A stretch of DNA of 64,000 nt from a virus. The notes beneath the pieces are model-generated. The model saw nothing but the letters and a program-made list of their open reading frames with translations, searched no databases and had not been told where the DNA came from. Of the stretch, positions 8,640-59,792 are shown piece by piece. Within the stretch, counting starts at the first letter, position 1. Every line of letters starts with the position of its first letter. Location: the IMG/VR virus record IMGVR_UViG_3300033182_000538, positions 102,989-166,988 of that record. One strand, 5' to 3'. A program made the position numbers and the translations under genes.

Positions 8640-8671
8640 CTAATATACAAAAATTTATTTAATTTTCCAAA
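8640..8671 (-). promoter_or_regulatory. Bacteroidota sigma70-type promoter (likely leaderless mRNA)
   Basis: TTTG-N20-TATATTAG ending 6 nt before the ATG at 8633. Confidence 0.65.
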
Positions 8672-39947: not shown

Positions 39948-41624
39948 TTACCTTTCCAAATTATTCATAAAAGAAACTACGATATATCGTGTTCCATCGG
40001 TGGTAGCTCGTGCTCCGTGCTTATGAGTAATATTTCCAGGATGTAGACTAGCATACCCTATTGGTGCCTTTACTAATTGCTTTTGTCTTCTGAACCAAGT
40101 ACCACCCCCTTCATACTCATCTAAGTCTGAAAGTTGTACCAAACACGTTATGTCTGACTTATCGTGGTGGATTGATAAATGACCTTGAGCAGTTGGTGTA
40201 TATTTAGCTAAAAAGTTTTCAGATGTTAAATTATCCCAACCAGGTCCTTCCAATGCCCACATATAAACTCCAAGTGGCATTACATATTCACGAAGAACTT
40301 CCATATAAATATCCTGCATTCCAATTGTTTCTAAAATCATATCGGTTGTAGGATAGTTTTCGTGTCTATCAACAGTCCAAGAGTTTGAGTGTTCGGCTTC
40401 TTCACGAATCATTCTACAAAAGTCGGCTGTAAATAGTGGGAAATTAAAACAACTATCAAATGGCTCATCCACTATCAATTCCCATTCTTTTGTTCTCATA
40501 GCATATGCTATAAACTTACGCTTCCACTCATCTGGGTTATCATAGTAACTATATAATTCAGGATGTAATCTATTTGATGATTCTATCATATCAATCCATT
40601 CGTTGTATCTAATTGACCAATCTTGATTTCTAGCAAATTCTTCAGCTAAAGTTAAAAGTTTAGAAGATATATCATCTCGCTCATTTAAGAATAAATAAGA
40701 TGATACAATTGCTTCGTTCATTGCGTTTGTTGGTAAGGTTGAATCTACCAAAGTACTTCTACCACCCAATAGTGACACTAAATTACCCGTATCTGAAGAT
40801 ATTATCTTTACACCACCCATCATCATTTCAAGGGCTGTGATACAATATGTTTCATCATACTTTGATGGGTAAATCCAATACTCGGATGATTTAATTTGTC
40901 TATATAAGTCTCTTGGTGACAAACTTCCTAACCAATTAACATCATCTAAATCTTTTTTATAGTCATCATACCACTCCATAGCGTATGGTGGTGATGCTAC
41001 CCATAAAGTTAGTTGAGGATTTATACTTTTTAGCTTAGGCCAAATTTTTAATAAGTTTTCAAGACCTCTATCTGCTGCTGATGTGTATATTACTTTATTT
41101 TTATATTTTTCTTGGTCAATTTCATCAAAATCAGATACACTTATAGCATTTCCCAATACTTTCACTCGTGTGGGAGTAATATTGTAAGTATCACACAAAA
41201 TATTCTTTTGATATTCTGATACTGCTATAAAGTTTGTGATTCTATTGTCTTTTAGGTAGTCTAATCCATTATTTGGTAACATTTCACCATTATACCACCC
41301 ATAAAACTCATTATTATGTATCCAAAAATAAGATTTGTCATATGTAATACCAAAATCATCCAATAGAGGTAAATAATGAATATAATTACTTGCGATTACA
41401 ACATCAAAGTGAGTATTACCCTCTAAATCGGAATACTCCGTGAATGTAACACCAGAATCATAATCGGAATTAACATCTCCCGATACAATTACCTCGTGAC
41501 CATTTTGTGCAAACTCTTCAGCTAACTTTATAACACAATATTCTGAACCACCAAGTCCGTTTTCTAACCAATATTGTTTATTTATTGATTCTTTTTGATA
41601 ACCTAAACAAAATAATACTCTCAT
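39948..41624 (-). CDS. Fusion of a GT-B (GT4-like) glycosyltransferase and a PLOD-like lysyl hydroxylase
   Basis: N-terminal: GLGGSE, VSEYQ, YTSAADRGL, YPSKYDETYCITALE. C-terminal: LHPELY..NP.EWK, FPLF..DFC, ENYPTTDM, HHD, YEGGG, LHPGNITHKHG, GTRYIVVSF. Confidence 0.85.
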   Translation of the reverse strand: MRVLFCLGYQKESINKQYWLENGLGGSEYCVIKLAEEFAQNGHEVIVSGDVNSDYDSGVTFTEYSDLEGNTHFDVVIASNYIHYLPLLDDFGITYDKSYFWIHNNEFYGWYNGEMLPNNGLDYLKDNRITNFIAVSEYQKNILCDTYNITPTRVKVLGNAISVSDFDEIDQEKYKNKVIYTSAADRGLENLLKIWPKLKSINPQLTLWVASPPYAMEWYDDYKKDLDDVNWLGSLSPRDLYRQIKSSEYWIYPSKYDETYCITALEMMMGGVKIISSDTGNLVSLLGGRSTLVDSTLPTNAMNEAIVSSYLFLNERDDISSKLLTLAEEFARNQDWSIRYNEWIDMIESSNRLHPELYSYYDNPDEWKRKFIAYAMRTKEWELIVDEPFDSCFNFPLFTADFCRMIREEAEHSNSWTVDRHENYPTTDMILETIGMQDIYMEVLREYVMPLGVYMWALEGPGWDNLTSENFLAKYTPTAQGHLSIHHDKSDITCLVQLSDLDEYEGGGTWFRRQKQLVKAPIGYASLHPGNITHKHGARATTDGTRYIVVSFMNNLER

Positions 41625-41625
41625 A

Positions 41626-42918
41626 CTACTCTACTATATAATTTAATACTTCTTCTCTATCAAAATACCTACTTCTATCCATCCAAGCTTGAAGTTGGTA
41701 TGACTTATTGTTTTCTTCATCCCAAGACCAATCAAATTTACCCAACTCTTGAATCCGTTCGTGAATATATGGGTCATAATAATCTCTAATTAGTCTAGCT
41801 CTACGATTTATATCAACTCTATTGTTGTCAACTGTAGAATTACCATCATTATATTGTACATACAACATCTTTTTTAAGTGAATCATTCGAGTTTCTAAGA
41901 ATGTCTTTACAACTAACTCATAATCATCAGCTACTGATATATTTCTACTATGTCCTCGTATCTTATGATAAGTATCTCGATTCCAAACTCTACAATGATT
42001 TGGCATTCCGATATTAAATCGTATTGTTTTTGGATTTATTTCAGGATAATGATGTGTTAACCATTTTTGCCCATCAAATTCTTCCCAACTATGACCTCCA
42101 TACGACCAAACAAATCCATTTTCAGGATGTGCGTACCAATCATCACCAATTCTACCATATTGTCTTGGTGACCCATCGGCTTCAATCTCAGTTACATCAG
42201 TATAAACAAACCCAGCGTCTGGATATTTCTTACTTGCGTTTAAAACATCTTCCAAACAAGTTGAAATAAGGACATCATCGTGGTCTAATTCAAATAACCA
42301 CTCACCATTACACAACATCGCCGCTCTATGTTTGACCTCGCCAACATTTCCATTAGAAGTTGGACTCATTTTATAGATATTAACTCTATAATCAGTCTCA
42401 GCTATATCTTGTAAGTACTCCCAAGTTAAATTATGACCTTCGGGTGAATCATCTACAACAACCCATTCCCAATTTTCATAAGTTTGATTTACTAAACTTT
42501 CATATGTTCTAAAAATCCTCTCAGTTGTTTTGTACGCTGGAGTAAATACTGATAATATTGGTGTGTCTTTATCACCATAAACTTCTTTTTGTGATTTACA
42601 AGACCAAAATGTTGACTGACACACTACATCATTAGCCAAAATGTTGTCGGCTGGGATACTATCATATGATACTATCTTACTTGAAATCATCGTGTGGTGT
42701 CCCATTTGTAAAATTTGATTAGGATACTCACCTATAACAAGTATTACATCAGGTCTATGTTTAGCAAAGTGTTTTTTAAAATCAATTGAAGATTCATATG
42801 AGTATAAAATTATTTTTTCATATAAGTTTTCCTCAAAATAAACATCTGATATTAGTTGGTGTTCACCAAACCTATCCCAACCATAAACCAAAGCCGTTGG
42901 AAGTCCTGTTTTTCTCAT
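41626..42918 (-). CDS. GT2-family glycosyltransferase
   Basis: SVFTPAYK, QTYENWEWVVVDDS, LDHDD (DxD), ADDYEL. Confidence 0.88.
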   Translation of the reverse strand: MRKTGLPTALVYGWDRFGEHQLISDVYFEENLYEKIILYSYESSIDFKKHFAKHRPDVILVIGEYPNQILQMGHHTMISSKIVSYDSIPADNILANDVVCQSTFWSCKSQKEVYGDKDTPILSVFTPAYKTTERIFRTYESLVNQTYENWEWVVVDDSPEGHNLTWEYLQDIAETDYRVNIYKMSPTSNGNVGEVKHRAAMLCNGEWLFELDHDDVLISTCLEDVLNASKKYPDAGFVYTDVTEIEADGSPRQYGRIGDDWYAHPENGFVWSYGGHSWEEFDGQKWLTHHYPEINPKTIRFNIGMPNHCRVWNRDTYHKIRGHSRNISVADDYELVVKTFLETRMIHLKKMLYVQYNDGNSTVDNNRVDINRRARLIRDYYDPYIHERIQELGKFDWSWDEENNKSYQLQAWMDRSRYFDREEVLNYIVE

Positions 42919-42921
42919 AAT

Positions 42922-43524
42922 TTATCTATATGGTTCACCACCCACCCAAAGTACAAACGATTTTCGAATACCCTTGGTTACAGGTTTTACTCTATGTAAA
43001 TAAAATGATGGGAAAATCACAGCAGCTCCTTGATTTTTAGGAACTGTAATATGTCTACCTATGTTGAATTCTAAATCACCACCTTCGTAATCTTCGGATG
43101 ATGACAATTGAACAGTTACTGATATTTTTCTTTGATTTTGAATATCTACACCACAATCCATATGCCATTCATAACCACCTTCATTAGTTCCATAGTACTC
43201 AGTATATTGAATTTTTTCTTCCATAGTACTTAAATCAAACTTCCACATAGTATCGTTAGCTTCAGTAATCATATTATGTAGTTTTTCATAAACCCAAGCC
43301 CACTCTAAATTTTGTGGACACCATTTTATTCTTGATTTTCTATAATCTGAAACTTTTGCCGAATCTCCTTCGCCAGTTACAGCATCTTGAAATTCTAAGT
43401 TGGATGTCATTTGTTCAATGAGTACTAATTCTTGGGGAGTGAATCCATTTTTGAACCAATAATAATCATTGAAAGTTACATCTTGCCTATATGAGTTACG
43501 GCTAAATGAGAATTTTTTATTCAT
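42922..43524 (-). CDS. 2OG-Fe(II) oxygenase, prolyl-4-hydroxylase/PKHD type
   Basis: WHMD, RKISVTVQLS, YEGGDL, FPS...HRVKPVTKGIRKSFVLW. Confidence 0.88.
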   Translation of the reverse strand: MNKKFSFSRNSYRQDVTFNDYYWFKNGFTPQELVLIEQMTSNLEFQDAVTGEGDSAKVSDYRKSRIKWCPQNLEWAWVYEKLHNMITEANDTMWKFDLSTMEEKIQYTEYYGTNEGGYEWHMDCGVDIQNQRKISVTVQLSSSEDYEGGDLEFNIGRHITVPKNQGAAVIFPSFYLHRVKPVTKGIRKSFVLWVGGEPYR

Positions 43525-43562
43525 AACTAATTTCTTTATATATAAATATGATTTTTTATTTA

Positions 43563-46500
43563 TTAAATACTACCACTATTAAATGTTCTGATAATATATA
43601 CAGGGTCTCCAGTTGTCCATCCATTTGGTTTAAATGTTAATTCACCACCATTATTACCATCTAATACTTCAAAGTACCCACCGCCAGTCATTTGATTACC
43701 TTTAGCGCCTTTTTGACCACCGCCACCAATGTTTCCTTTTAAACCTTGATTTCCTTTTGAACCTTTAGCTCCAGAATAACCAGTAAAGCCCGTATTACCT
43801 TTAGAACCCTTGTTACCAGCGGCACCTTTCTGACCTTTGTCACCAGCCCCACCAGTTGAACCAACGCTTCCCTTATCACCCAAATCACCATCAGAGTCAG
43901 TATCACCTTGATTACCAACAGTACCTGTTCTACCAGAGTTACCTGTAAGACCTGGCCCACCTTGAGCTCCCGTTGACCCATCTAATCCATCGGCGCCTTG
44001 AGCACCAACAGCACCAGTATTACCTTTACCACCCTGAGGGCCTAAGTTACCCTTTTGACCTTTATTTGCAGCTACACCAATATGACCTTTATCACCTTGG
44101 TTACCAGTTTGACCTTTTATTCCTTTATTACCTACCGAGCCAATATGACCTTTATCACCTTGAGTTCCTTGGTTACCTGTACTTCCCTTATCACCTGCGG
44201 CACCTGTTGTACCTTTTTGGCCTTTAAATCCTTGATTACCTTGAGAACCTAAGTCACCAGCCACACCAATATGACCTTTAACTCCAATAGCCCCATCTAA
44301 TCCATCAACACCTTGAGCTCCGGTGGCACCTTTTTGACCTTTTTGACCTTTAACACCTAAGACACCAATAGCTCCTTTATTTCCAGCATCACCTGCTGAG
44401 CCCTTTTGTCCTTTGATACCAGTTGTTCCCTTAGCTCCTTTATTTCCAGCAGCGCCTGGACCACCGACTGAGCCAGTATGTCCTTGATTACCCGTACTTC
44501 CCTTATCACCCGCGGCACCAGTATTACCTTTGTTACCTTTGAACCCCATAGTACCAATCGAGCCTTTGTTTCCAGCATCACCAGCCGCACCTTTTTGGCC
44601 TTTTATACCAATAGCACCTTTCGTACCTTTATTACCTGCGGCTCCCTTAGAGCCGGTTACACCAGTACCACCCGTGTTACCTTTAGAACCTTTTCCACCA
44701 CCAGCACCTGAACCACCTTGATTACCTTTTTGACCTGTGTTACCTTGAGCTCCTAAGTCGCCAGCTAAACCAATATGACCTTTAGAACCAACTGAACCAG
44801 GATTTCCATCAGAACCTTTATTTCCAGCGGCACCTTTCGTACCTTGATTACCTTTAGAACCAGTATTACCTTTAGAACCTTTATTTCCAGCATCACCAGC
44901 CGCACCTTTTTGGCCTTTGACGCCAGTAGCACCTTTAGAACCCTTACTTCCAGTAGCTCCAGTATTACCCTTAGCACCTACTGTACCGGGGTTTCCATCA
45001 GAACCTTTATCTCCGGCAGCGCCCGTATTACCTTTTTGGCCTTTTTGGCCTGTGTTACCTTGAGCTCCTAAGTCGCCAGCTACACCAATATGACCTTTAG
45101 CTCCTTGATTACCAGTATTACCTTTAGAGCCTTTGTTTCCAGCAGCACCTTTTCCACCACCAACACCTGACCCACCTGTGGCGCCTTTACTTCCTTTATT
45201 ACCGGCATCGCCCGTATTACCTTTGTTACCTTGTGGGCCTAAATTACCTTTTTGACCTTTACTCGCGGCTAAACCTATATGACCTTTAGCTCCTTGATTA
45301 CCAGTATTACCTTTAGAGCCTTTATTTCCAGCATTTCCACTAACACCAACGGCTCCAGTAGCTCCCGTTTGACCTTTTTGTCCTTTAGAGCCAGTATCAC
45401 CAGCAGCTCCATCAGCTCCCGAACTACCCGTAGCTCCAGCTGCACCGGCTTGACCACTTGTTCCTTTATTACCCGCGGCACCTGTGTTACCTTTAGCCCC
45501 TTGAGCTCCGGCTACACCCGTATTACCTTTTTGACCTTTATTTCCAGCAGCACCAGTTGCTCCAGCACTTTCGGGCTGTGCACCTTGAGCGCCTTGATTA
45601 CCCTTAGCACCTTTGTTTCCAGCAGCACCAACAGAACCTTGAGCTCCTGAAGTACCTTGTGGACCAGTATTACCTTTTGAACCTTTAGAGGCTCCACCAC
45701 CACTCGCACCAGTTTGACCTTTGGCACCAGTTTGGCCTTTTTGACCTTTACCACCTTGAGGGCCTTGATTACCAGCTGCACCTGTAGCACCAGTATCACC
45801 GTCTGGGCCAGTAGCACCTTGTGCACCTTTTGGCCCTGTATCACCTGCAGCACCCGTAGCACCCGTAGCACCACCTTGGCCTTTTTGGCCTTTACCACCT
45901 TGAGGGCCTTGATTACCAGCGGCACCTTGGGAACCAGTCCCACCGATTTCACCTTTTTGGCCTTTACTGCCTTGATGACCTTGCTCGCCAGCGGCACCTT
46001 GAGCTCCAGTTGCCCCACCTTGGCCTTTTTGTCCTTTACCACCTTGAGGGCCTTGATTACCAGCTGCACCTGTATTACCTTTTGCTCCTTGAGCACCAGT
46101 TACACCAGTATTACCTTTTGCGCCCGTAGCACCTGCGGCACCCTGACCGCCACCTTGGCCTTTTTGTCCTTTACCACCTTGAGGGCCTTGATTACCAGCA
46201 GCTCCAGCAGAACCTTGAGCTCCCGATGTACCTTGTGGACCAGTATTACCCTTAGCTCCCTTAGAAGCACCCCCACCACTTGCGCCGGTGTTACCCTTTT
46301 GCCCCTTTATACCTTTTGCGCCCGTAGCTCCCGCGGCACCTGTGTTACCTTTAGCCCCTTGAGCTCCAACCGCACCTTGGCCACCACCTGAACCTGGAGA
46401 ACCGGTTTGACCGCCCGGCGCAGAACCTACAGCACCTTGAGCACCTGAAGCACCAAGTCCTCCTTGAGCACCCTGACCACCCTGATTACCTTTTTGACCT

Positions 46501-47300
46501 TTTGAACCTTGAGGGCCTGTTCCTAAGTCTAAATCACCGCCTCCACCTCCGATAGAGCTTTCACAAGTAGTACAATTTGTATGTTCATCGTAGTCCCAAC
46601 TATTACCTGTATCGGTTAACTCGATTACTTCCCAACACCCATCTAACTCACCATTTGGAAATGAAACTACAGACCCAACTCCTAAAGCTCTGAGGGGGTC
46701 TGCTAAATTGTCAGTATCCTCTTCACCACATTTTTGAATTACCCAGCTTTTTGCGTTGTGAACTACAAATCCATCATTAATGTAGATATCTTGAGGTTCA
46801 ACATTGATATGATATGTTGTTTGTTGGGTTACTTCGGTAAATGCGTTTTCTATTCTTACATATTCAAATGAATTAGATGTTGTATCATAATGTATCAACC
46901 AATCACTTGTTGGTGATATATCTCCAAGACTTTTCCAAGAAACATCCCAATCAATTGAACCACTATCCCCACTTGTGGGTAGTGCTGTTAATATTTTTTC
47001 TCTATCTGAAAGAGTTATAGAGCCAGAATCAGTTTCTAATGTATATACAGTTTCAGCATTTACAGAACTACCCGAACCTACTACTGTTACATTGGTAGTA
47101 GTTAAAAAAGATGCTTCGTTAGTTGAACCTGATGGTGAATTGAAACTTCCAGTCCATTGAATAGAAGATTCATTATTCCAAGTATCATTTATACCACTAA
47201 GTTGTACACCAATAATGGTAGAACCTGAAGTGATATTATTAATTTGGTTTGACCCACCTTGGGTATTCAGTAATATGTCAGATGATGCTATAAAACCCAT
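43563..47300 (-). CDS. Collagen-like fibre protein 1 (Hint domain, Cys-rich domain, ~940-aa Gly-X-Y region, short C-terminal cap)
   Basis: Long Gly-X-Y run rich in GxKG; Hint C-terminal motif TYHINVEPQDIYINDGFVVHN. Confidence 0.9.
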   Translation of the reverse strand: MGFIASSDILLNTQGGSNQINNITSGSTIIGVQLSGINDTWNNESSIQWTGSFNSPSGSTNEASFLTTTNVTVVGSGSSVNAETVYTLETDSGSITLSDREKILTALPTSGDSGSIDWDVSWKSLGDISPTSDWLIHYDTTSNSFEYVRIENAFTEVTQQTTYHINVEPQDIYINDGFVVHNAKSWVIQKCGEEDTDNLADPLRALGVGSVVSFPNGELDGCWEVIELTDTGNSWDYDEHTNCTTCESSIGGGGGDLDLGTGPQGSKGQKGNQGGQGAQGGLGASGAQGAVGSAPGGQTGSPGSGGGQGAVGAQGAKGNTGAAGATGAKGIKGQKGNTGASGGGASKGAKGNTGPQGTSGAQGSAGAAGNQGPQGGKGQKGQGGGQGAAGATGAKGNTGVTGAQGAKGNTGAAGNQGPQGGKGQKGQGGATGAQGAAGEQGHQGSKGQKGEIGGTGSQGAAGNQGPQGGKGQKGQGGATGATGAAGDTGPKGAQGATGPDGDTGATGAAGNQGPQGGKGQKGQTGAKGQTGASGGGASKGSKGNTGPQGTSGAQGSVGAAGNKGAKGNQGAQGAQPESAGATGAAGNKGQKGNTGVAGAQGAKGNTGAAGNKGTSGQAGAAGATGSSGADGAAGDTGSKGQKGQTGATGAVGVSGNAGNKGSKGNTGNQGAKGHIGLAASKGQKGNLGPQGNKGNTGDAGNKGSKGATGGSGVGGGKGAAGNKGSKGNTGNQGAKGHIGVAGDLGAQGNTGQKGQKGNTGAAGDKGSDGNPGTVGAKGNTGATGSKGSKGATGVKGQKGAAGDAGNKGSKGNTGSKGNQGTKGAAGNKGSDGNPGSVGSKGHIGLAGDLGAQGNTGQKGNQGGSGAGGGKGSKGNTGGTGVTGSKGAAGNKGTKGAIGIKGQKGAAGDAGNKGSIGTMGFKGNKGNTGAAGDKGSTGNQGHTGSVGGPGAAGNKGAKGTTGIKGQKGSAGDAGNKGAIGVLGVKGQKGQKGATGAQGVDGLDGAIGVKGHIGVAGDLGSQGNQGFKGQKGTTGAAGDKGSTGNQGTQGDKGHIGSVGNKGIKGQTGNQGDKGHIGVAANKGQKGNLGPQGGKGNTGAVGAQGADGLDGSTGAQGGPGLTGNSGRTGTVGNQGDTDSDGDLGDKGSVGSTGGAGDKGQKGAAGNKGSKGNTGFTGYSGAKGSKGNQGLKGNIGGGGQKGAKGNQMTGGGYFEVLDGNNGGELTFKPNGWTTGDPVYIIRTFNSGSI

Positions 47301-47319
47301 TTATTAATACCTTTAATTA

Positions 47320-50300
47320 TTATACTGAACCACTCTGGTACATCAGAACAATTCCGGTAAATGAACCACTCGAAAACTCTAACAAACCACTATTCGTGTT
47401 AAATGCAAACCCACCATTTGCCAATCCACTAATAGTTGTACCCAACGCAGATTCACCTTTTTGACCTTGTGGCCCTTTAGCACCTTGTGCGCCACCAGCA
47501 CCTTGAGCTCCTTGTGGAGATGAACCTTGAGCTCCTTGAGCTCCTTGTGCGCCAGTTGGAGAAGCTCCTTGAGCTCCTTGAGGACTTGACCCTTGAGCGC
47601 CGTGGTCACCTTGTGGCCCTTTAGCACCTTGTGCTCCAGCGGCTCCTTGAGCTCCCTGCGCACCTTGTACACCCTGCGCACCTTGAGCGCCTTGTTGACC
47701 CTGATTACCTTGTGCACCTTGCGGGCCTTGAGCACCTGTTGGAGAAGCACCTTGAGCGCCTTGAGCCCCTTGTGGGCCTTTCGCACCTTGAGCTCCTTGA
47801 GGACTTGAACCTTGAGCACCTTGAGCACCTTGTGGGCCCTGTGCACCTTGGTCACCTTGTGGACTACCACCTTGAGCACCTTGAGCGCCTTGGTCACCCT
47901 GCGCACCCTGTGCACCCGTTGGAGAAGCTCCTTGAGCCCCTTGGTCACCCTGTTGTCCTTTTGAACCTTGAGCTCCTTGAGGTGATGAACCTTGTGCACC
48001 TTGAGCACCCGTTCCACCTTGAGCACCTTGAGCTCCAGTTGGAGAAGCTCCTTGAGCCCCTTGGTCACCTTTTGGCCCCTTAGCACCCTGTGCACCTTGA
48101 GGACTTGACCCTTGAGCACCTTGGTCACCCTTTGGCCCCTTAGCACCCTGTGCACCTTGAGGACTTGACCCTTGAGCACCTTGAGCCCCTTGGTCACCCT
48201 GCGCACCTTGAGCGCCAGTTGGAGAAGCCCCTTGAGCACCTTGTGCTCCCGTTGGCCCCTTTGGCCCTTGAGCGCCTTGAGGACTTGAACCTTGAGCACC
48301 TTGGTCACCTTTTGGCCCCTTAGCACCCTGTGCACCTTGAGGACTTGACCCTTGAGCACCTTGATTACCCTGAGCACCTTGCGCACCTTGGTCTCCTTGA
48401 GGTGATGACCCTTGAGCACCTTGAGCTCCTTGCGGGCCTTTCGCCCCTTGGGCTCCTTGAGGACTTGAACCTTGAGCACCTTGAGCACCCTGATTACCCT
48501 GTGCACCTTGGTCTCCTTTAGGAGATGAACCTTGAGCACCAGTTGCACCTTGAGCACCAGTAGCACCCTGCGCACCTTGTGGAGAAGCTCCTTGAGCCCC
48601 TTGGTCACCTTGTGGCCCTTTGGCTCCTTGAGCACCTTGAGGTGATGACCCTTGAGCACCTTGAGCACCCTGATTACCTTGTGCACCTTGGTCACCTTTA
48701 GGACTTGAACCTTGAGCCCCTTGGTCACCTTTCGGCCCTTTAGCTCCTTGAGCACCTTGAGGTGATGACCCTTGAGCACCTTGAGCTCCTTGCGGGCCTT
48801 TCGCCCCTTTAGCTCCTTGAGGTGAAGCCCCTTGAGCGCCTTGATTACCTTGCGCACCTTGTGCACCCTGAACCCCTTGAGGTGATGAACCTTGAGCACC
48901 TTGAGCACCTTGTGGGCCTTTTGCACCTTGAGCTCCTTGAGGACTTGAACCTTGAGCACCTTGAGCACCTTGTGGGCCCTGTGCACCTTGGTCTCCTTTA
49001 GGACTTGAACCTTGAGCACCAGTAGCACCTTGAGCGCCTTGTTGCCCCTTTTGACCTTTAGACCCTTGAGGTGAAGCCCCTTGAGCACCTTGTGGGCCCT
49101 GAGCACCTTGTTGCCCCTTTTGACCCTTAGCTCCTTGAGGTGATGCTCCTTGAGCACCTTGGTCGCCTTTTGGGCCTGTACTACCTTGAGCACCTTGAGC
49201 ACCTTGAGGTGATGAACCTTGTGCACCTTGATTACCCTTAGCACCTGTGGCACCTTGCGCGCCTTGGTCACCTTTGGGAGATGAACCTTGAGCACCTTGT
49301 GGGCCTTGTGGGCCCTGTGCACCTTGAGCACCTGTATCACCTTTTGGCCCTTGTGTTGCTGAACCTTGAGCACCTTGACCACCCTGATTACCTTTTTGCC
49401 CCTTTTGACCTTTAGCTCCTTGAGGTGAAGCCCCTTGAGCTCCCTGTAGGCCCTGAGCACCTGTTGGGCCCTGATTACCTTTAGCACCTTGGGGTGATGC
49501 TCCTTGAGCACCTTGTGGACCCTGAGCACCTGTGGCACCTTTCTGACCCTTAGCACCTTGGGGTGATGCTCCTTGAGCACCTTGTGGGCCCTGAGCACCT
49601 TGTTGCCCCTTTTGACCCTTAGCACCTTGAGGTGATGCTCCTTGAGCACCCTGACCACCCTGATTACCTTTTTGCCCCTTTTGACCCTTAGCTCCTTGGG
49701 GTGATGCTCCTTGAGCACCTTGGTCGCCTTTTGGGCCTGTACTACCTTGAGCACCTTGAGCACCTTGAGGTGATGAACCTTGAGCACCCGTGGCACCTTT
49801 TTGACCTTTCTGACCTTTAGCTCCTTGAGGTGAAGCACCTTGAGCACCTTGTGGGCCTTGTGGGCCCTGTGCACCTTGAGCACCTGTATCACCTTTTGGC
49901 CCTTGGGTTGCTGAACCTTGAGCACCCGTGGCACCTTTTTGACCTTTAGCTCCTTGAGGTGAAGCCCCTTGAGCACCTTGGTCGCCTTTTGGGCCTGTAC
50001 TACCTTGAGCGCCGGTTGAACCCGCTGGGCCTTGAGCACCTTTTTGACCCTTTGACCCGGCAGCACCTTGAGCTCCTTGCGGGCCTTTCGTACCTTGTGG
50101 ACCAGTTGGACCAGTGTTACCTTTTTGCCCTTTTTGACCCTTAGCACCCGTTGGGCCGGTGTTATGCATTAGAATAGAACCTACAAAGTAATTATGGTCA
50201 GGTTCTACTTCTATACTTACTATATCTAATTCTTCTTCTACTAATTGTAGTGAAGTTATTTTTACATTATCGTAAAATAAGTGAGTTGGACATCCGTGTT

Positions 50301-50583
50301 CACAATCACACGAATAAGCGTTTCCAATCGGAGATACCCATTCACCATTTTGAAAGAATTTTACATCAAGTGATGTTTTTAATTCAGTACCATCTGAAAG
50401 TGAGATTTGTAAATACGAGTCAACTTTAGAGGTTCTTATACAAACTACTCGGTTATCTCTAACGAGACCCGTTTCAATATCATAACCCTTTACGAAATCA
50501 CCAAGTTTAATGTCACCGATTTTGGTAACATTTCCATTGATTTCTATTAAGGTATCTTTATGTAATCCGTGTATCAATTCCAT
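47320..50583 (-). CDS. Collagen-like fibre protein 2 (Hint domain, ~900-aa interrupted Gly-X-Y region, short C-terminal cap)
   Basis: GAQ/GPQ/GAK triplets with periodic G[AS]SPQ interruptions; Hint C-terminal motif VSIEVEPDHNYFVGSILMHN/T. Confidence 0.9.
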   Translation of the reverse strand: MELIHGLHKDTLIEINGNVTKIGDIKLGDFVKGYDIETGLVRDNRVVCIRTSKVDSYLQISLSDGTELKTSLDVKFFQNGEWVSPIGNAYSCDCEHGCPTHLFYDNVKITSLQLVEEELDIVSIEVEPDHNYFVGSILMHNTGPTGAKGQKGQKGNTGPTGPQGTKGPQGAQGAAGSKGQKGAQGPAGSTGAQGSTGPKGDQGAQGASPQGAKGQKGATGAQGSATQGPKGDTGAQGAQGPQGPQGAQGASPQGAKGQKGQKGATGAQGSSPQGAQGAQGSTGPKGDQGAQGASPQGAKGQKGQKGNQGGQGAQGASPQGAKGQKGQQGAQGPQGAQGASPQGAKGQKGATGAQGPQGAQGASPQGAKGNQGPTGAQGLQGAQGASPQGAKGQKGQKGNQGGQGAQGSATQGPKGDTGAQGAQGPQGPQGAQGSSPKGDQGAQGATGAKGNQGAQGSSPQGAQGAQGSTGPKGDQGAQGASPQGAKGQKGQQGAQGPQGAQGASPQGSKGQKGQQGAQGATGAQGSSPKGDQGAQGPQGAQGAQGSSPQGAQGAKGPQGAQGAQGSSPQGVQGAQGAQGNQGAQGASPQGAKGAKGPQGAQGAQGSSPQGAQGAKGPKGDQGAQGSSPKGDQGAQGNQGAQGAQGSSPQGAQGAKGPQGDQGAQGASPQGAQGATGAQGATGAQGSSPKGDQGAQGNQGAQGAQGSSPQGAQGAKGPQGAQGAQGSSPQGDQGAQGAQGNQGAQGSSPQGAQGAKGPKGDQGAQGSSPQGAQGPKGPTGAQGAQGASPTGAQGAQGDQGAQGAQGSSPQGAQGAKGPKGDQGAQGSSPQGAQGAKGPKGDQGAQGASPTGAQGAQGGTGAQGAQGSSPQGAQGSKGQQGDQGAQGASPTGAQGAQGDQGAQGAQGGSPQGDQGAQGPQGAQGAQGSSPQGAQGAKGPQGAQGAQGASPTGAQGPQGAQGNQGQQGAQGAQGVQGAQGAQGAAGAQGAKGPQGDHGAQGSSPQGAQGASPTGAQGAQGAQGSSPQGAQGAGGAQGAKGPQGQKGESALGTTISGLANGGFAFNTNSGLLEFSSGSFTGIVLMYQSGSV

Positions 50584-50595: not shown

Positions 50596-51447
50596 TTATT
50601 GTGTTACGTTTAGGATTAAAACCACATTAAAACTATAACCTGATGCTCTCGATAAACTTGTTCTATTAACAAAGAGACTTAAATGGTCGCCACTATCAAA
50701 TGAATAATTGGTTGCGCCAAATGTATATGTTGTTGATGCACCAGCTGTACTACTTATAGTTTGAGTTTGTGTAGTTAGGCCCGTGCTATTTAAGAATGGA
50801 GTAATTGAAAGATTTCCACCTAGAGCATTTTGATGTGGGTGTACTATAATCTCTTTTATGTATCCATCATACGGAGCGTACCATCTATTATATCCAAATG
50901 GTATTAGTGATGTAGCATTTATACCAGCCCAAGGTGCAAATCCACTTAGATAAAAACTTGGGAATTCAAATGCTAACGGAATTAATTCAGGGGTTTGTAT
51001 CCACGAAAAAGAAGCAGACTCGGCTGTTATTAAACCACTTGAAGAAACTTCGAACTGAGATATACCAGACCCATCATTTACTTGGAAGAGGGTGTCTGAG
51101 ATGGTGTCAGTTACCTTGATTAACTCACCATTTGAACCAGATACAATAAAGATATCATTACCATCATTATCGTGAATTATTTCAGTCTTTTCTTCATTGT
51201 GGAATATAGAAGATGTCATAATCTCCGTAGACCCACTAAACATTGGTATGTAATTTAAGGTACCTGAACCTGTTACTGTAACAGGAGTTCCCCCATTCAG
51301 TTGAAATCGTTGTGTGGATGACCCCAATGAAAGGGTGTTATCCGAATCTGGCATAATATCTTGGGATGTGAGTATTCCACCAGATGCTGTTATTTCGTTT
51401 AATACTGCATCGCTTCCGGAAACGATGACTTTTTTCCAATTTGGCAT
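50596..51447 (-). CDS. Putative fibre-associated virion protein
   Basis: N-terminus MPNWKKVIVSGS is shared with 52000-53676; first gene of the collagen operon. Confidence 0.55.
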   Translation of the reverse strand: MPNWKKVIVSGSDAVLNEITASGGILTSQDIMPDSDNTLSLGSSTQRFQLNGGTPVTVTGSGTLNYIPMFSGSTEIMTSSIFHNEEKTEIIHDNDGNDIFIVSGSNGELIKVTDTISDTLFQVNDGSGISQFEVSSSGLITAESASFSWIQTPELIPLAFEFPSFYLSGFAPWAGINATSLIPFGYNRWYAPYDGYIKEIIVHPHQNALGGNLSITPFLNSTGLTTQTQTISSTAGASTTYTFGATNYSFDSGDHLSLFVNRTSLSRASGYSFNVVLILNVTQ

Positions 51448-51464
51448 ATTCTCTTCCTATTTGC

Positions 51465-51509
51465 GGTTGGTTACACTTACGTGCCCACTTCCCATTCGGG
51501 CCAACAACC
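51465..51509 (-). ncRNA. Candidate structured cis-regulatory RNA (three-way junction) in a 5' leader
   Basis: GUUGG-[CCC gaau GGG]-AAGUGG-[GCAC guaa GUGU]-AA-CCAAC; a GC-rich island in AT-rich intergenic DNA. Confidence 0.45.
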
Positions 51510-51546
51510 AGGTTTATTCTACTTTACTTATATAAGTATTAAATTT

Positions 51547-51576
51547 AAAAAATAAAATCCCCATAGGTGGGGATTC
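51547..51576 (-). terminator. Rho-independent terminator
   Basis: AATCCCCA-ccta-TGGGGATT-TTATTTTTT. Confidence 0.7.
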
Positions 51577-51578
51577 AT

Positions 51579-51770
51579 TTATTCTTTTGTGATAATATCA
51601 CCTTTTTTAGGTCTTTTAGATTTTGGAATTTCTAATAAATCAATTTCCATTTGAACTTTTCTTTGTAAGTCAACCATCATCATTGCGTCAGCGCCTGTGA
51701 TTGGTAGCTTTTCTAAAGCCATTCTTATAACTTTCAAATCAGTTTGATTTAAACCTTCATAAGCTTTCAT
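51579..51770 (-). CDS. Small hypothetical protein (possible fibre chaperone)
   Basis: 63 aa; 'ITGADA' segment resembles 'FQGKDL' in the neighbour. Confidence 0.5.
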   Translation of the reverse strand: MKAYEGLNQTDLKVIRMALEKLPITGADAMMMVDLQRKVQMEIDLLEIPKSKRPKKGDIITKE

Positions 51771-51776
51771 AACATT

Positions 51777-51980
51777 TTATTTTTCTTGATTTAACATAAC
51801 TTGTAATTTTACAGCCAAATTATACATTGACTCTAAATCTTTTCCTTGAAATGTAGAATTTGCGATTAAAGAAAGTAAAACCTCAAGCTCTTGTTGAGAG
51901 AGCTTGAGGATTACTTCATTATTGATTACATTTTTGGGTTTAACTTGTTTTTTTACATCTAATTTTTTATGTAAACTCAT
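51777..51980 (-). CDS. Small hypothetical protein (possible fibre chaperone)
   Basis: 67 aa, helical, tightly packed after a fibre gene. Confidence 0.5.
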   Translation of the reverse strand: MSLHKKLDVKKQVKPKNVINNEVILKLSQQELEVLLSLIANSTFQGKDLESMYNLAVKLQVMLNQEK

Positions 51981-51999
51981 AACTAAATTTATTTAAAAA

Positions 52000-53676
52000 T
52001 TAAGAATAAATCCAAATTGTTTCATCATCAGTTCTAACATTGATAGCACCCACACCTTGTAAAGAAACTGTAGATGGGTTTGCACCATTTGTTGTTTGAA
52101 TTTCACCGATTTTACTCAAGATAGCACCACCGCCACCTTCCCAATCGGTATCACCAGCAGATACATCTTCTGCAAAGATAAAGTTACCAGCAGAATCATC
52201 CCAACCAATAGCGTGACCTTGATTAGCACTATCACCAGAACCACCGAAGATAATACCTACATCAGCACCACCACTTGAACCTGAGTTCAATAGGATAAGC
52301 GGGTCTTCTACGTTTAAGTTAGCTACTTGTAATTCAGTTCTTGTACCTTCAACAGTTAAATCACCAGTTACAGTTAAGTTAGTAAATGATGGAGAATCTG
52401 ATGTAGCAACTGATTGGTCTTGACCACCTAAGTAACCCCATTGAGTATTTGAGATTGTTACTGAATTGATGTTACCAATCTGACTTGCTTCACCCGAAGT
52501 GATAGATTGGTTATGTAAATCTGATGCGTTACCAGCAGTACCATCTACATCACCTTTAAGAGATGCAGTTACGTTTGTTACAGTTACTGCATCAGGCAAT
52601 CCAATTGTAAATGCAGATGAACCATCGGCATAAGCAACTGTTACTTCATTTGAAGTACCTTGAATAGTAAGAGTTTCTGCATCACTAATTGCACCATTAC
52701 CAGAACCACCATCGCTTACTTGTAGGTCGTAAACGAAATCAGAACCTTCAAGAGTTGTGATTCTTGACGCTAATGAAGATGAATCAGTAGTGAATGCACC
52801 AGAGATAGCAGTTTTAGCGCCCGCTGAGAAGTGTACGTTATCGATAGCACCATCAACGATTTCTGCAGAATCAACTGAATCATCTGCCATCATTGAGTTC
52901 TCAACTGCGTTTGATTGAATAGTCAATGCGATTTGAACTGCGTCAGTAGATAGAGCCGCCTGACCAGCCACATCACCAGAAGCAGTAACTGATAAAGCAC
53001 CATCGTTCAACATACCCAAATCAATTGCGTCATTAGCGATAGTCAATGCACCACCTGCAGCGATTGTAGCATCACCACTAATATCGTTAAATACCGCGTC
53101 TCTAACAACACTAAAGTCAGCTCTTTTAACTGTACCTGCATCTGAAACTAATAATTCATCAGTATCAGCAACATCTCCTGTCATTTGACCTTGACCTGAA
53201 ATAATGTTGTTGTTTAACATATCCGCTTCAACGGCGTTGTTTTGAATAGTTAAAGCACCACCTGCAGCGATTGTAGCATCACCCGATACATTACCAAAGA
53301 TTTCATCTTCTAAGTTAGAGAATGTAATTTTTTGTGAACCGTTGTCAGTTGCGTCTACCATTGCGATAAAATCATCTTGTGCAATTGTAGTTTCAGTACC
53401 TAATTCATTTAAATCAACCGCGATGTCAGCGATTGTTTCATCAGAACCTTGGTTCAATGTAAATACACCATCGCCTGAAGCGAATGAGATACCATTACCT
53501 GCCGTAATGGTAATTTGGTTATTGTTCACACCTGCCAAGTCAGATACCTGACCCGAAGATGAAACAATACCTGCACCTAACGCTTGGATACCTGCGTTGT
53601 CAATCAAGTATGCCGAGTCGTTATTTAGTTGTGAGATATTCGACCCACTAACTATGACTTTTTTCCAACTTGCCAT
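52000..53676 (-). CDS. Acidic fibre/whisker-like virion protein
   Basis: Repeated SGDATIAAGGALTI, coiled coil LASRITTLE and 'LTVTGDLTVEGT..LNVEDPLILLN'. Confidence 0.65.
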   Translation of the reverse strand: MASWKKVIVSGSNISQLNNDSAYLIDNAGIQALGAGIVSSSGQVSDLAGVNNNQITITAGNGISFASGDGVFTLNQGSDETIADIAVDLNELGTETTIAQDDFIAMVDATDNGSQKITFSNLEDEIFGNVSGDATIAAGGALTIQNNAVEADMLNNNIISGQGQMTGDVADTDELLVSDAGTVKRADFSVVRDAVFNDISGDATIAAGGALTIANDAIDLGMLNDGALSVTASGDVAGQAALSTDAVQIALTIQSNAVENSMMADDSVDSAEIVDGAIDNVHFSAGAKTAISGAFTTDSSSLASRITTLEGSDFVYDLQVSDGGSGNGAISDAETLTIQGTSNEVTVAYADGSSAFTIGLPDAVTVTNVTASLKGDVDGTAGNASDLHNQSITSGEASQIGNINSVTISNTQWGYLGGQDQSVATSDSPSFTNLTVTGDLTVEGTRTELQVANLNVEDPLILLNSGSSGGADVGIIFGGSGDSANQGHAIGWDDSAGNFIFAEDVSAGDTDWEGGGGAILSKIGEIQTTNGANPSTVSLQGVGAINVRTDDETIWIYS

Positions 53677-59129: not shown

Positions 59130-59792
59130 TTATTCATAAGAAAATAACAATTTTAAAACTTCATCTAAAGACTCGTGTCTATGATTATCTTTCAAAACAA
59201 TGTTATAAACATATTCTGATTCTTTTAATTTATGAACTTCGTGTACTGCCGAATCGTTATTGAATTTTAAATCAATTTGTTGAGGGTCTCCACAAAGTAT
59301 CATACGAGAATTCTTACCTAATCTACCCAATACCATAGCTAATTGCTGTTTGGTAAGATTTTGAAACTCATCTACTATAACTATTGAATTATCAAAAGTT
59401 CTTCCACGAAAATGAGATAAGGATACCAACTCAATGGATTCTTCCTTTTCCATCTTTTCTAAAATGTTTGGTTTATTGTAAACCTTTCTCATATTAGAAC
59501 GAATTGGAACTAACCACGGCTCCATCTTTTCTTCTAATGAACCCGGTAAGAATCCATTATCTTCATTTGAGACCGTTGGTCTTGTTATAACAATTTTATC
59601 TACTTCTCTTTTGAAGAACGAATCCAAAGCAATCTGAACCGCTAGTAGCGTTTTACCACTTCCTGCTTTTCCTAAAATAAAATTAAATGGATGTTGTCTG
59701 ATTTCGGTTTTTGCTAATTTTTGTTCTTCCGATAGAGTAATTGAAAATCTGATGTTTCCTTTTGGAACTCTTTTCTCTGTATTTTCAGGCAT
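59130..59792 (-). CDS. phoH: PhoH-family ATPase
   Basis: GKAGSGKT, TRP, GFLPG, RGRTF, DEFQN, GDPQQID. Confidence 0.95.
   Translation of the reverse strand: MPENTEKRVPKGNIRFSITLSEEQKLAKTEIRQHPFNFILGKAGSGKTLLAVQIALDSFFKREVDKIVITRPTVSNEDNGFLPGSLEEKMEPWLVPIRSNMRKVYNKPNILEKMEKEESIELVSLSHFRGRTFDNSIVIVDEFQNLTKQQLAMVLGRLGKNSRMILCGDPQQIDLKFNNDSAVHEVHKLKESEYVYNIVLKDNHRHESLDEVLKLLFSYE

Follow-up and report, generated by a model that had tools for sequence, protein, structure and literature searches.

A candidate phage module for collagen hydroxylation and glycosylation, with two giant collagens and a predicted glycosyltransferase–lysyl hydroxylase fusion

The window analyzed here is a stretch of 64,000 nucleotides of viral DNA (IMG/VR record IMGVR_UViG_3300033182_000538, positions 102,989 to 166,988). 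Its list of open reading frames (ORFs) contains five contiguous, co-oriented genes on the minus strand from 50583 to 39948, as described in a first-pass annotation of the same DNA. The virus is an uncultured, T4-like marine bacteriophage, whose group is related by capsid to Flavobacterium phage immuto and Microcystis phage Mel-JY01. These encode two collagens, a small 2-oxoglutarate (2OG)/Fe(II) oxygenase, a GT2 glycosyltransferase (GT), and a protein in which a GT4 domain is fused to a lysyl hydroxylase (LH) domain. The features are listed below from upstream to downstream.

51531..51539, minus strand: promoter-like motif variant ATACTTATA, a one-mismatch copy of the recurrent sense-strand ATATTTATA
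50596..51447, minus strand: 283-aa ORF, 12 nt upstream of collagen 1, putatively co-transcribed with it
47320..50583, minus strand: collagen 1, 1087 aa (ORF and Pfam Collagen)
43563..47300, minus strand: collagen 2, 1245 aa (ORF and Pfam Collagen)
43541..43549, minus strand: promoter-like motif ATATTTATA, 17 nt before the start codon of the oxygenase
42922..43524, minus strand: small 2OG/Fe(II) oxygenase, 200 aa, PKHD/PiuC/YbiX-type (Pfam 2OG-FeII_Oxy_3)
41626..42918, minus strand: GT2 glycosyltransferase, 430 aa (Pfam Glycos_transf_2)
39948..41624, minus strand: predicted GT4–lysyl hydroxylase fusion, 558 aa (Pfam GT domains and OGFOD2-like domain)
40590..41624, minus strand: predicted GT-B/GT4 domain of the fusion, residues 1 to ~345 (Pfam, Foldseek, E258-x7-E266)
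39951..40577, minus strand: predicted PLOD/L230-type LH domain of the fusion, residues 350–558 (LH3/L230 homology, fold)

The module is flanked by the major capsid gene (59902–61494) on one side and by adaptor-like, sheath (34645–36978), and tube genes on the other; judging from this gene order, the collagen genes appear to lie where T4 has fibritin, immediately before the neck genes. The 283-aa ORF, for which Pfam and PHROG searches returned no match, is probably co-transcribed with collagen 1. A late motif had been reported at 43541. It is real and enriched, with 14 matches against 7.2 expected and none of 100 shuffles reaching 14, and further copies precede the starts at 39912, 36978, 37330, 59792, and 19722 by 17–38 nt. 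However, its gene-sense sequence is ATATTTATA and not T4's TATAAATA, and the copy at 43541 was therefore rejected as a T4-type late promoter in gene sense. Thirteen of the 14 motif copies are on the plus strand, and all genes are on the minus strand. The ATACTTATA variant follows a terminator-like hairpin and precedes the 283-aa ORF, collagen 1, and collagen 2; its promoter-like role is putative.

Both collagens are recognized by the Pfam Collagen profile (PF01391; 4e-74 and 245 bits for collagen 1, 1.6e-108 and 355 bits for collagen 2) and are assigned as collagen triple-helix repeat proteins, for which a trimer is predicted. Their collagenous spans of 903 and 942 residues, respectively, give ~260–270 nm at 0.286 nm per residue, in agreement with the earlier estimate of about 260 nm. 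The repeat of collagen 1 carries a two-residue insertion each 18–21 residues, mostly PQ, as in GAS-PQ-G, so that the triple helix need not be continuous; the longest unbroken Gly-X-Y run, of 396 residues, belongs to collagen 2. Lysine overwhelmingly occupies the Y position, as the first reading of the sequence had it, with 51 lysines in Y among the 273 triplets of collagen 1, 95 among the 307 of collagen 2 (31% of triplets), and none in X in either protein. Proline is found in X in 45 triplets (34 in collagen 1 and 11 in collagen 2) and in Y in 0/273 and 5/307, respectively, while collagen 1 contains ~35 additional S-P-Q/K/T-G sites. The Y positions of collagen 2 also hold 57 Thr and 12 Ser.

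The repeats are preceded by N-terminal domains and followed by C-terminal caps, that of collagen 1 being ~42 aa long and that of collagen 2 conserved. Residues 1–142 of collagen 1 form a putative Hint-like domain ending in MHN, directly followed by TG; residues 1–145 match Intein_splicing at 1.6e-4 (22 bits, below the cut-off of 35.8) and the Pho RadA intein at E 0.005, an alignment that includes the terminal HN. The N-domain of collagen 2 (261 aa) contains the sequence V-H-N (residues 180–182), invariant in seven orthologues and followed by a Cys-containing stretch. This domain gave no intein or Hint match, and its AlphaFold2 model, built with the seven orthologues, reached a pLDDT of only 43.5. 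Both N-domains are devoid of the position-1 nucleophile (Cys/Ser/Thr) for splicing. In BLAST comparisons of collagen 1 with collagen 2, neither the N-domains (E 0.21) nor the C-terminal caps (E 0.53) matched significantly; thus, pairwise comparison does not show that the two proteins are related.

The LH domain of the fusion matches residues 525–737 of human LH3 at E 7e-34, over residues 3–205 of the 209-residue query, and mimivirus L230 at E 1.6e-19. The LH3 match reaches the LH-specific N-terminal helices (LHPELYSYYDNPDEWKRKFI), which lie outside the generic 2OG-oxygenase core. With the AlphaFold2 model of the fusion (pLDDT 88.6), the top Foldseek matches were LH3 (E 1e-19) and the LH domain of L230 (TM 0.86, rmsd 2.2 Å, ~205 columns). 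The Fe ligands H486/D488/H536 correspond to H667/D669/H719 of LH3 and H825/D827/H877 of L230, and the 2OG-binding R546 to R729 and R887, respectively; all four residues are invariant in 32 homologues (42–88% identity) and in 85 wider relatives. Additionally, I532, invariant in 32 homologues, aligns with L873 of L230, a hydrophobic dimer contact that is required for activity (PMC9614988). By sequence and modeled fold, the 558-aa protein ends in a domain that is genuinely related to the collagen lysyl hydroxylases of animals and mimivirus, and the comparison with LH3 and L230 that had been proposed as a check upholds this identification. In the PLOD/L230 hydroxylase family, the only members that have been characterized use X-Lys-Gly in collagen as a substrate (PMC9614988, PMC5802723). 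In a tree of LH domains, phage and bacterial sequences group together in one large and diverse clade, which is split from the PLOD-type clade with 99% SH-aLRT. The LH-domain relatives number 2102 in all.

The N-terminal domain of the fusion scores above the cut-offs of PF00534, PF13692, and PF13439 (Glycos_transf_1/Glyco_transf_4), and its Foldseek matches include PimA, MshA, and BshA, with a TM of ~0.68 normalized to the target. The E258-x7-E266 motif of the GT4 domain is invariant in 32 homologues. On the profile matches and the model, this domain is a retaining-type GT-B/GT4 enzyme, not a GT-A enzyme as in PLOD; since the corresponding fold is GT-A in animals and mimivirus, hydroxylysine is only proposed as the acceptor of GT4. 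A Pfam search of the 558-aa protein returned no match to PF01755 (GT25), the family to which COLGALT1 and the GT domain of L230 belong (PMC9614988). Sister phage proteins of ~790–820 aa are arranged as GT4-GT25-LH, with GT25 inserted between GT4 and LH. The separate GT2 belongs to a GT-A, inverting-type family (PF00535, 5e-15, 56 bits, cut-off 23.3), contains the motifs DDS and DHD (DXD), and has chondroitin synthase as its best solved match (5.5e-12). It had been counted among the parts of the module, and the gene does lie at this place; however, it occurs in 10/19 related loci, and, being missing from about half of them, it is dispensable and an accessory member.

The 200-aa oxygenase contains a 2OG-FeII_Oxy_3 domain (Pfam, 9e-14) with the residues H121-x-D123, H177, and R187. 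When a profile of eight orthologues was compared with solved structures, PKHD-type proteins were matched at 3e-10 and 1e-9 and a solved P4H (6IUQ) only marginally, at E 0.049; in NCBIfam, the protein falls in the PRK05467 group, below cut-offs. The family label of P4H, under which the first-pass annotation had placed this gene, was therefore rejected, and the enzyme is better described as PKHD/PiuC/YbiX-type. Animal C-P4H acts on Y-position Pro, and its canonical substrate X-Pro-Gly is nearly missing from both collagens (five Pro in Y). None of the 18 related loci that extend this far lacks the oxygenase gene, and a second myophage lineage carries a homologue with 47% identity. Homologues elsewhere adjoin Pro-rich, Lys-free collagens, so that a prolyl hydroxylase role stays plausible, and the gene context makes this enzyme a plausible candidate collagen hydroxylase for prolyl or other residues. 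No literature on PiuC was found. The phage also encodes further 2OG oxygenases and GTs away from the module; a PF13640 profile search of its own genome listed two other oxygenases and missed the 200-aa one, which is ascribed to search sensitivity.

Among related viruses, a collagen gene is located directly upstream of the enzymes in all 22 loci with enough upstream DNA. Many of these loci are close kin of one another, and about eight distinct groups can be counted. The conserved order of collagen, small oxygenase, optional GT2, and GT-LH fusion is kept in two myophage lineages with different flanking genes, one of them with a non-T4-type sheath. The contigs of many relatives stop within the collagen gene, as expected of repeat-broken assemblies. 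Marine metagenomes contain more than 200 full-length homologues, and matches at E<=1e-30 comprise 88 clusters at 50% identity. The nearest 150 LH-domain cluster representatives comprise 46 with a GT25 and/or GT4 fusion, 23 with a PLOD-type N-terminal region, and 81 with the LH domain alone, many of the latter being short fragments; throughout the clade of the phage fusion, GT4 and LH are parts of one protein. A tblastn search of the cultured phages of the collection did not find the fusion and gave partial GT or generic oxygenase matches only. Bacterial GT4-LH genes are solitary; they lie amid housekeeping genes and have no collagen gene less than 10 kb away. Lys-in-Y collagens are encoded elsewhere in 4/5 bacterial genomes with the fusion, compared with a baseline of collagen matches in 42/201 Rhodobacteraceae genomes (one-sided p = 0.009).

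The preference of lysine for Y had also been read as a pointer to hydroxylation, a use that did not survive the controls. In 69 random viral collagen ORFs, lysine occurs 460 times in Y and 54 times in X; viral collagens in general share Lys-in-Y and Pro-in-X, which alone do not identify the substrate. Together with a second control of 20 collagen-like regions from Rhodobacteraceae genomes without the fusion, this led to the rejection of Lys-in-Y as specific evidence for an LH substrate. Among the random viral collagens, an LH domain is encoded on 2/11 contigs with Lys-rich collagens vs. 0/55 others (p = 0.026), and one of these two contigs encodes a collagen of 2235 aa whose Y positions hold 229 lysines. 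The remaining nine of the 11 are without LH, two of them being at least 90% complete, and such nearly complete phage genomes indicate that Lys-rich collagens need no LH enzyme.

Because a true LH relative is fused to a bacterial-type GT and encoded directly after two giant collagen genes, the phage probably hydroxylates and sugar-coats its own fibers. The earlier proposal that a PLOD-type LH/GT fusion acts on the adjacent collagens retains the LH3/L230 homology, the intact active site, and the 22/22 synteny in its favor, but loses the arguments from Lys-in-Y and P4H. We consider it likely, on the predicted gene functions, that the locus is a late-expressed operon for two ~260-nm trimeric collagen-like fibers, which are modified in the infected cytoplasm by LH, GT4/GT2, and the small oxygenase. 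The LH domain would use Fe(II) and 2-oxoglutarate to convert Y-position Lys (Gly-X-Lys-Gly) of unfolded chains to hydroxylysine. The GT4 domain would then add a sugar to the new hydroxyls, alone or with GT2, and GT25 would serve the same purpose in sister phages. The small PKHD-type oxygenase may act as a second collagen hydroxylase, with proline as the most likely target. Folding would probably be nucleated from the conserved C-terminal cap, so that the chain would stay open to the enzymes until translation ends. What the analysis establishes is the family, the preserved catalytic residues, the arrangement of domains, and the constant linkage to collagen genes; we infer the substrate, the order of the reactions, the action of a GT on hydroxylysine, the sugar, and the site of the fibers on the virion.

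It is conceivable, though rather unlikely, that LH makes hydroxylysine while the GTs instead O-glycosylate Thr/Ser of the collagens in a BclA-like manner or build a glycan on another virion protein, in which case hydroxylysine alone would serve helix stability, charge, or cross-linking. The GT-B fold of the GT4 domain, unlike that of all known hydroxylysine glycosyltransferases, would suit such a division of labor, as would the 57 Thr and 12 Ser in Y of collagen 2 and the optional nature of GT2; moreover, hydroxylysine has been found in mimivirus virions, and its glucosylation was not confirmed there (PMC9614988). Nevertheless, GT4 is covalently fused to LH throughout the clade, the recognizable partner domains of LH across the family are glycosyltransferases, including those of the proven bifunctional LH3 and L230, and a COLGALT/L230-type GT25 sits between GT4 and LH in the sister proteins.

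Whether the collagens are the target at all can also be questioned. The enzymes might modify a different structural protein or, in the host, an envelope protein or a glycan, with collagen adjacency reflecting a shared late structural module, which would agree with the bacterial homologues not lying beside collagens, with the other 2OG oxygenases and GTs encoded elsewhere by the phage, and with the lack of LH alongside most Lys-rich viral collagens. We regard this as quite improbable given that the collagen-oxygenase-GT-LH order recurs in 22/22 loci and in two myophage lineages with differing flanks, that the only family members to have been characterized act on collagen X-Lys-Gly (PMC9614988, PMC5802723), and that fusion-bearing bacteria are enriched for Lys-in-Y collagens. 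That the module is what remains, decayed or inactive and now without function, of a PLOD gene acquired horizontally from a eukaryote or giant virus is scarcely credible; the LH domain is closer to the animal enzyme (E 7e-34) than to L230 (E 1.6e-19), as such an origin would have it, yet its catalytic residues are invariant in 32 homologues at 42–88% identity, full-length homologues in marine metagenomes exceed 200, and the large, diverse phage/bacterial clade stands apart from the PLOD-type clade (99% SH-aLRT) and is no recent offshoot within it.

The hydroxylation of collagen Lys followed by O-glycosylation is credited to animals as their invention, mimivirus being the sole case outside them, and reviews describe prokaryotic and phage collagens as generally unmodified (PMC8968730, PMC9614988). 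We found no publication on phage or bacterial PLOD-type lysyl hydroxylases; the published descriptions found of this pathway concern animals and giant viruses. If modification of the adjacent collagens is borne out, a widespread phage PLOD-type enzyme would bring collagen Lys chemistry into the bacterial world, provide a new GT-B partner for hydroxylysine glycosylation, and offer compact enzymes, working in a bacterial cytoplasm, for the production in E. coli of recombinant collagen that carries both modifications. Abundant marine myoviruses would carry very long sugar-coated fibers, which could alter host recognition, protease resistance, or particle stickiness. A testable way into the evolutionary origin of PLOD enzymes would also be gained. 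More tentatively, we propose as a possibility that tailed phages and a few marine bacteria perform a full animal-style collagen maturation in the cytoplasm, comprising LH activity, hydroxylysine glycosylation by a GT-B enzyme with no earlier tie to collagen, a second, probably prolyl, hydroxylation, and possibly Hint-mediated self-cleavage of an N-terminal propeptide, and that a large microbial and viral radiation of GT-fused LH enzymes was the source of animal PLOD and giant-virus L230-type enzymes.

Analogous to the phage fusion, mimivirus L230 (LH domain PDB 6AX6) is a single virus-encoded polypeptide in which a glycosyltransferase precedes a PLOD-type LH, and the two share the Fe ligands, the 2OG-binding Arg, the dimer-contact residue, and the fold (TM 0.86). 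Mimivirus also encodes Pro-poor, Lys-bearing collagens (PMC9614988). The hydroxylase and hydroxylysine glucosyltransferase activities of L230 are proven, whereas those of the phage fusion are predicted from sequence. L230 contains a GT25-like (GLT25D1-like, GT-A) domain and a long middle region, in contrast to the GT-B/GT4 domain of the phage fusion, which is devoid of GT25; furthermore, the host is an amoeba in one case and a bacterium in the other, and the phage enzyme genes directly adjoin the collagen genes.

In sequence, the LH domain matches human LH3/PLOD3 (PDB 6FXK, 8ZGC) best, over a stretch that extends beyond the generic double-stranded beta-helix core, and the logic of LH3 and COLGALT1, in which Y-position Lys is hydroxylated and then glycosylated, is the one proposed for the phage. 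LH3 differs in having two GT-A-type domains (Pfam GT_PLOD) and in working in the ER lumen, where COLGALT1 (GT25) adds Gal first; the phage enzyme would be cytoplasmic, with a retaining GT4 and a separate GT2, and belongs to a microbial/viral tree clade distinct from the PLOD clade. For the 200-aa oxygenase, the nearest solved relatives are PKHD-type proteins (Shewanella Sbal_3634, PDB 3DKQ; PiuC/YbiX), which are without an established substrate, whereas the phage gene is fixed between the collagen gene and the LH fusion.

T4 fibritin (wac) is encoded just upstream of the neck/adaptor and sheath genes as a trimeric fiber with a small C-terminal trimerization cap. It is a positional analogue only of the phage collagens, with no sequence similarity to them, and is a coiled coil with no known modification. 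BclA of Bacillus anthracis is a collagen-like surface fiber in which Thr of the GXT repeats is glycosylated by dedicated glycosyltransferases, with no hydroxylase involved. Both BclA and the phage proteins represent prokaryotic-type collagen fibers; what sets the phage system apart is a predicted PLOD-type hydroxylase fused to a glycosyltransferase.

The 558-aa protein is a member of the PLOD/L230 family of collagen lysyl hydroxylases (LH), has an intact active site, combines its C-terminal LH domain with a GT4 domain, and is linked to collagen genes. Its gene is located in the structural block of the window, in which every gene is carried by the minus strand, in the following order of transcription.

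59902-61494 (-), major capsid protein, first in the block
59130-59792 (-), PhoH-like gene, directly 3' of the major capsid gene, within the structural block
Between the PhoH-like gene and collagen 1 (-), 1528-aa ORF and three unassigned ORFs
50583-47320 (-), collagen 1, 1087 aa, Pfam Collagen
47300-43563 (-), collagen 2, 1245 aa, Pfam Collagen
43524-42922 (-), small oxygenase (2OG oxygenase), 200 aa
42918-41626 (-), GT2, 430 aa
41624-39948 (-), GT4-LH fusion protein, 558 aa
Downstream of the fusion gene (-), adaptor-like protein (phrog_211), then two small ORFs
36978-34645 (-), tail sheath, then tail tube and baseplate hub

The window covers the final 64 kb of an IMG/VR virus record of 166,988 bp, the completeness of which is estimated at 87%; its GC content is ~35%, with 47-56% over the collagen genes. 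The capsid protein is 58% identical to that of Microcystis phage Mel-JY01 and 55% to that of Flavobacterium phage vB_FspM_immuto, with T4 further off, so that the source phage is a distant T4-like marine myovirus.

The comparison of 39948-41624 with human LH3 (PLOD3) and the mimivirus enzyme L230, which had been proposed in the first-pass annotation, bore out its reading of a GT4/lysyl hydroxylase fusion. Within the fusion protein, residues 350-554 align with the lysyl hydroxylase domains of LH3 (E 7e-34) and L230 (E 1.6e-19), and the LH-specific segment preceding the oxygenase core falls within this alignment. Counting along the printed alignments, H486/D488/H536 correspond to H667/D669/H719 in LH3 and H825/D827/H877 in L230, R546 corresponds to R729 and R887, respectively, and I532 corresponds to L873 of L230, mutation of which abolishes dimerisation and activity (PMC9614988, PMC5802723). 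All five residues are conserved without exception across 32 aligned homologues (42-88% identity), as is the GT4 hallmark E-x7-E (E258...E266). The AlphaFold2 model built on this alignment (mean pLDDT 88.6) retrieved LH3 as the first-ranked Foldseek match (E 1e-19); its C-domain superposes on the L230 LH crystal structure with a TM of 0.86 and an rmsd of 2.2 A, and its N-domain matches the retaining GT-B/GT4 enzymes PimA, MshA, BshA, and glycogen synthase (target-normalised TM ~0.68).

Full-length homologues of the fusion protein number more than 200 in marine metagenomes. The co-occurrence across phage genomes, another check suggested at first pass, was assessed in viral loci gathered with three queries: a collagen ORF lies directly upstream in 22/22 loci that retain DNA upstream of the enzyme genes, which represent roughly eight distinct groups rather than 22 independent observations (L073 and L075 being left out of the count). 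In the six loci without a visible collagen, the contig breaks off at the enzyme genes or a short distance 5' of them, and many contigs terminate within the collagen gene, consistent with its repeats. The conserved arrangement starts with the collagen(s), continues with the small oxygenase (47-70% identity) and, where present, GT2 (10/19 loci), and closes with the GT-LH fusion, which in several groups reaches ~790-820 aa because GT4 and LH are separated by an additional GT25 domain. GT25 is the animal collagen galactosyltransferase family, to which the GT domain of L230 is similar (PMC9614988). The L072/L074 loci belong to a different myovirus type, with a 587-aa Phage_sheath_1 sheath and other flanking genes, and keep collagen, small oxygenase, and GT4-GT25-LH in order, which argues that the module travels as a unit. 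This second lineage adds a 781-aa GT1-GT9 double transferase (L074:1978-4320) between two collagens (L074:2-1687 and 4388-8302), suggesting a larger glycan.

Both window collagens match Pfam Collagen very strongly, and a search of the record for collagen genes found none besides these two. Collagen 1 contains 39 runs totalling 273 Gly-X-Y triplets, broken every 18-21 residues by two-residue insertions, mostly PQ (GAS-PQ-GAK; pattern G-A/S-S-P-Q/K/T-G over 47500-50010, -), which would interrupt or bend a 260-nm helix at ~38 regularly spaced points; its coding region is a diverged tandem array of 60-nt (x23) and 69-nt (x10) units with ~72% matches. Collagen 2 contains 307 triplets, and its longest runs reach 396 residues. 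The collagenous spans of 903 (collagen 1) and 942 residues (collagen 2) correspond to ~260-270 nm.

The collagen 2 family shares a conserved ~40-aa C-terminal cap, GGYFEW..KL.FK..GW..GD...IVE.YRSGSY (43563-43700, -; orthologous loci L010, L012, L015, L026, L070, and L071), which is likely a trimerisation nucleus by analogy with the T4 fibritin foldon. Both window collagens end in SGS[VI] (collagen 1 C-terminus at 47320-47460, -); pairwise BLAST of the two caps gave no significant match. The N-terminal non-collagen domains (50158-50583, -, and 46515-47300, -) end in His-Asn in both collagens. That of collagen 1 ends MHN|TG, immediately ahead of the first triplet, and has weak intein matches, with the Pho RadA intein aligning to its terminal HN. 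An invariant V-H-N, followed by a Cys-rich stretch, is shared by collagen 2 and the same six orthologues despite 24-30% overall identity. Protein splicing is ruled out because the N-domains have no position-1 Cys/Ser; propeptide self-cleavage by Asn cyclisation is conceivable.

The claim that lysine lies overwhelmingly in Y holds for both proteins (51 in collagen 1 and 95 in collagen 2, with 0 in X), and proline is nearly all at X; as specific evidence for modification, however, the lysine bias loses its weight, since control counts indicate that Lys-in-Y and Pro-in-X are generic. Of 20 collagen-like regions taken from fusion-free Rhodobacteraceae genomes, most are poor in lysine, and the few lysines present are again in Y (20 versus 1 in X), one protein with lysine at both positions excepted. 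A pattern scan of viral contigs yielded 80 loci and, with a minimum of 30 triplets, 69 collagen ORFs, in which lysine occurs 460 times in Y versus 54 in X and proline 1069 times in X versus 236 in Y. Fourteen of the 69 are Lys-rich, 11 of them on searchable contigs; an LH domain is present on 2/11 and absent from 9/11, two of these being at least 90% complete. One of the two LH-bearing contigs encodes a 2235-aa collagen (L131:2655-9359) with 229 Y-lysines (52% of triplets) and, ~8 kb away, a 754-aa protein with an LH match (E 1.6e-59; 17201-17767 on the contig of L131). No LH was found in the flanks of 55 Lys-poor viral collagen loci (2/11 vs 0/55, p 0.026, only flanks being searched for the Lys-poor set). 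The presence of the enzyme is thus predictive of a collagen next to it, whereas the converse does not hold for Lys-rich collagens.

Enzymes routinely found without Lys-rich collagens had been named at the outset as counting against the proposal, and bacteria provide part of such a picture. The fusion is present in six bacterial genomes (Granulosicoccaceae, a Chromatiales symbiont of Bugula, Aliishimia, a Rhodobacteraceae MAG, and a Flavobacteriaceae MAG); the GT4-LH gene is a singleton amid housekeeping genes (loci L018, L020, L022; L028, L029, L031; marine Gammaproteobacteria and Rhodobacteraceae), with no collagen within 10 kb. However, Lys-in-Y collagens are encoded at distant sites in 4/5 of the fusion-bearing genomes searched, as exemplified by a GEKGDTGAQ-repeat protein in Aliishimia; one 667-aa GEKGDTGAQ protein has 64 lysines in Y versus 1 in X. 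Among 201 Rhodobacteraceae genomes, the fusion occurs in 1 and a collagen match above the cut-off in 42 (4/5 vs 42/201, one-sided Fisher p 0.009).

A profile-free search with the LH domain alone over 1.84 billion cluster representatives returned 2102 relatives, of which 88 have E<=1e-30. Among 70 of these relatives examined with Pfam, 35 contain GT25, 22 the PLOD GT domain, and 12 GT1/GT4, and our HMM classes for the best 150 of 2102 were GT4-GT25-LH (23), GT25-LH (19), GT4-LH (4), PLOD-type (23), and LH alone (81, many being fragments). In a quick maximum-likelihood tree built from 121 LH domains, PLOD-type (34) and microbial/viral sequences (87) form two clades set apart with 99% SH-aLRT. 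The fusion protein falls among 23 GT4/GT25 fusions that group together at 99% support, closest to a GT4-GT25-LH protein that shares 77% identity with it over the LH domain. Bacterial GT4-LH proteins nest inside the phage GT4-LH group; since the tree is unrooted, no direction of transfer is claimed.

As a family-2 GT-A enzyme, the GT2 is unremarkable; it carries the motifs DDS and DHD, and its nearest solved relative is chondroitin synthase (E 5.5e-12). The small oxygenase retains its H-x-D...H...R set and was initially labelled P4H-type, an assignment that we replace with the PKHD/PiuC/YbiX branch, since a profile built from eight orthologues matches 3DKQ (3e-10) and PiuC (1e-9) versus 0.049 for a solved prolyl 4-hydroxylase. 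Its similarity to the LH domain is weak (E 1e-4). In the random sample of viral collagens, its homologues occur beside Pro-rich, essentially Lys-free collagens on contigs without LH.

L121:590-8634, homologue E 5.6e-49, Pro-rich, Lys-free collagen, no LH on contig
L141:6079-7570, homologue E 1.8e-33, directly adjoining a GPT-repeat collagen, no LH on contig
L142:6756-14031, homologue E 5.9e-21, Pro-rich, Lys-free collagen, no LH on contig

These pairings tie the small oxygenase to collagen independently of lysine, and because of them proline is most likely its target, at a position that must differ from the animal Y-site since proline here lies at X. They look like a separate collagen-oxygenase pairing worth a study of its own. 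Two more 2OG-FeII_Oxy_3 genes occur in the same phage genome (window 8659-9216, -; G000:C1:87305-87565, outside the window), so that the collagen module is not the only place in which this phage encodes small oxygenases.

The late motif noted at 43541 is enriched ~2x over expectation, strongly strand-biased (13/14 copies on one strand), and found 17-40 nt 5' of start codons, with a distance of 17-38 nt for several structural genes; it is not, however, T4's TATAAATA, a reading rejected because in gene sense it reads ATATTTATA.

19749, 34028, 34040, 37016, 37360, 39931, 43541, and 59830, among 13 sites in the window, ATATTTATA in gene sense

The copy at 43541 precedes the small oxygenase and that at 39931 the adaptor-like gene; a one-mismatch copy at 51531 lies after a terminator-like hairpin, ahead of a 283-aa ORF and both collagens. 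ATATTTATA is a plausible phage promoter element, probably the late or middle one of this phage group. The hairpin, AATCCCCACCTATGGGGATTTTATTTTTT, lies in 51448-51600 (-) and is followed by the motif variant and a GC-rich leader, ahead of the operon comprising the 283-aa ORF and the collagens; the interval 51600-52000 contains two small ORFs.

We propose that collagen chains would be synthesised late in infection, and that the LH domain, probably as a dimer, would hydroxylate Y-position lysines on the unfolded chains, while the PKHD-type oxygenase would hydroxylate proline. Hydroxylysine would receive its sugars from the retaining GT4 fused to LH and from GT2, which belongs to an inverting family (or from GT25 in sister phages), and the conserved C-terminal cap would start trimerisation. 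Because GT4 is the constant LH partner in the clade, with GT2 and GT25 variable, it would either glycosylate hydroxylysine directly or elongate a first sugar already in place. The collagen genes lie just 5' of the neck genes, the position of the fibritin gene in T4; this likeness, which is positional only, suggests that the collagens are neck or whisker fibres.

In the full-text literature, collagen lysyl hydroxylase/glycosyltransferase chemistry was found for animals and mimivirus only, and none for phages or bacteria; according to a 2022 review, no collagen-glycosylating enzyme outside animals was known before L230 (PMC9614988). Judged from the genes, what appears new here is a PLOD/L230 system in tailed phages, in a tight operon with its presumed substrates and with a different fusion partner: PLOD3 and L230 carry GT-A partner domains, whereas the phage protein has a GT-B fold instead.
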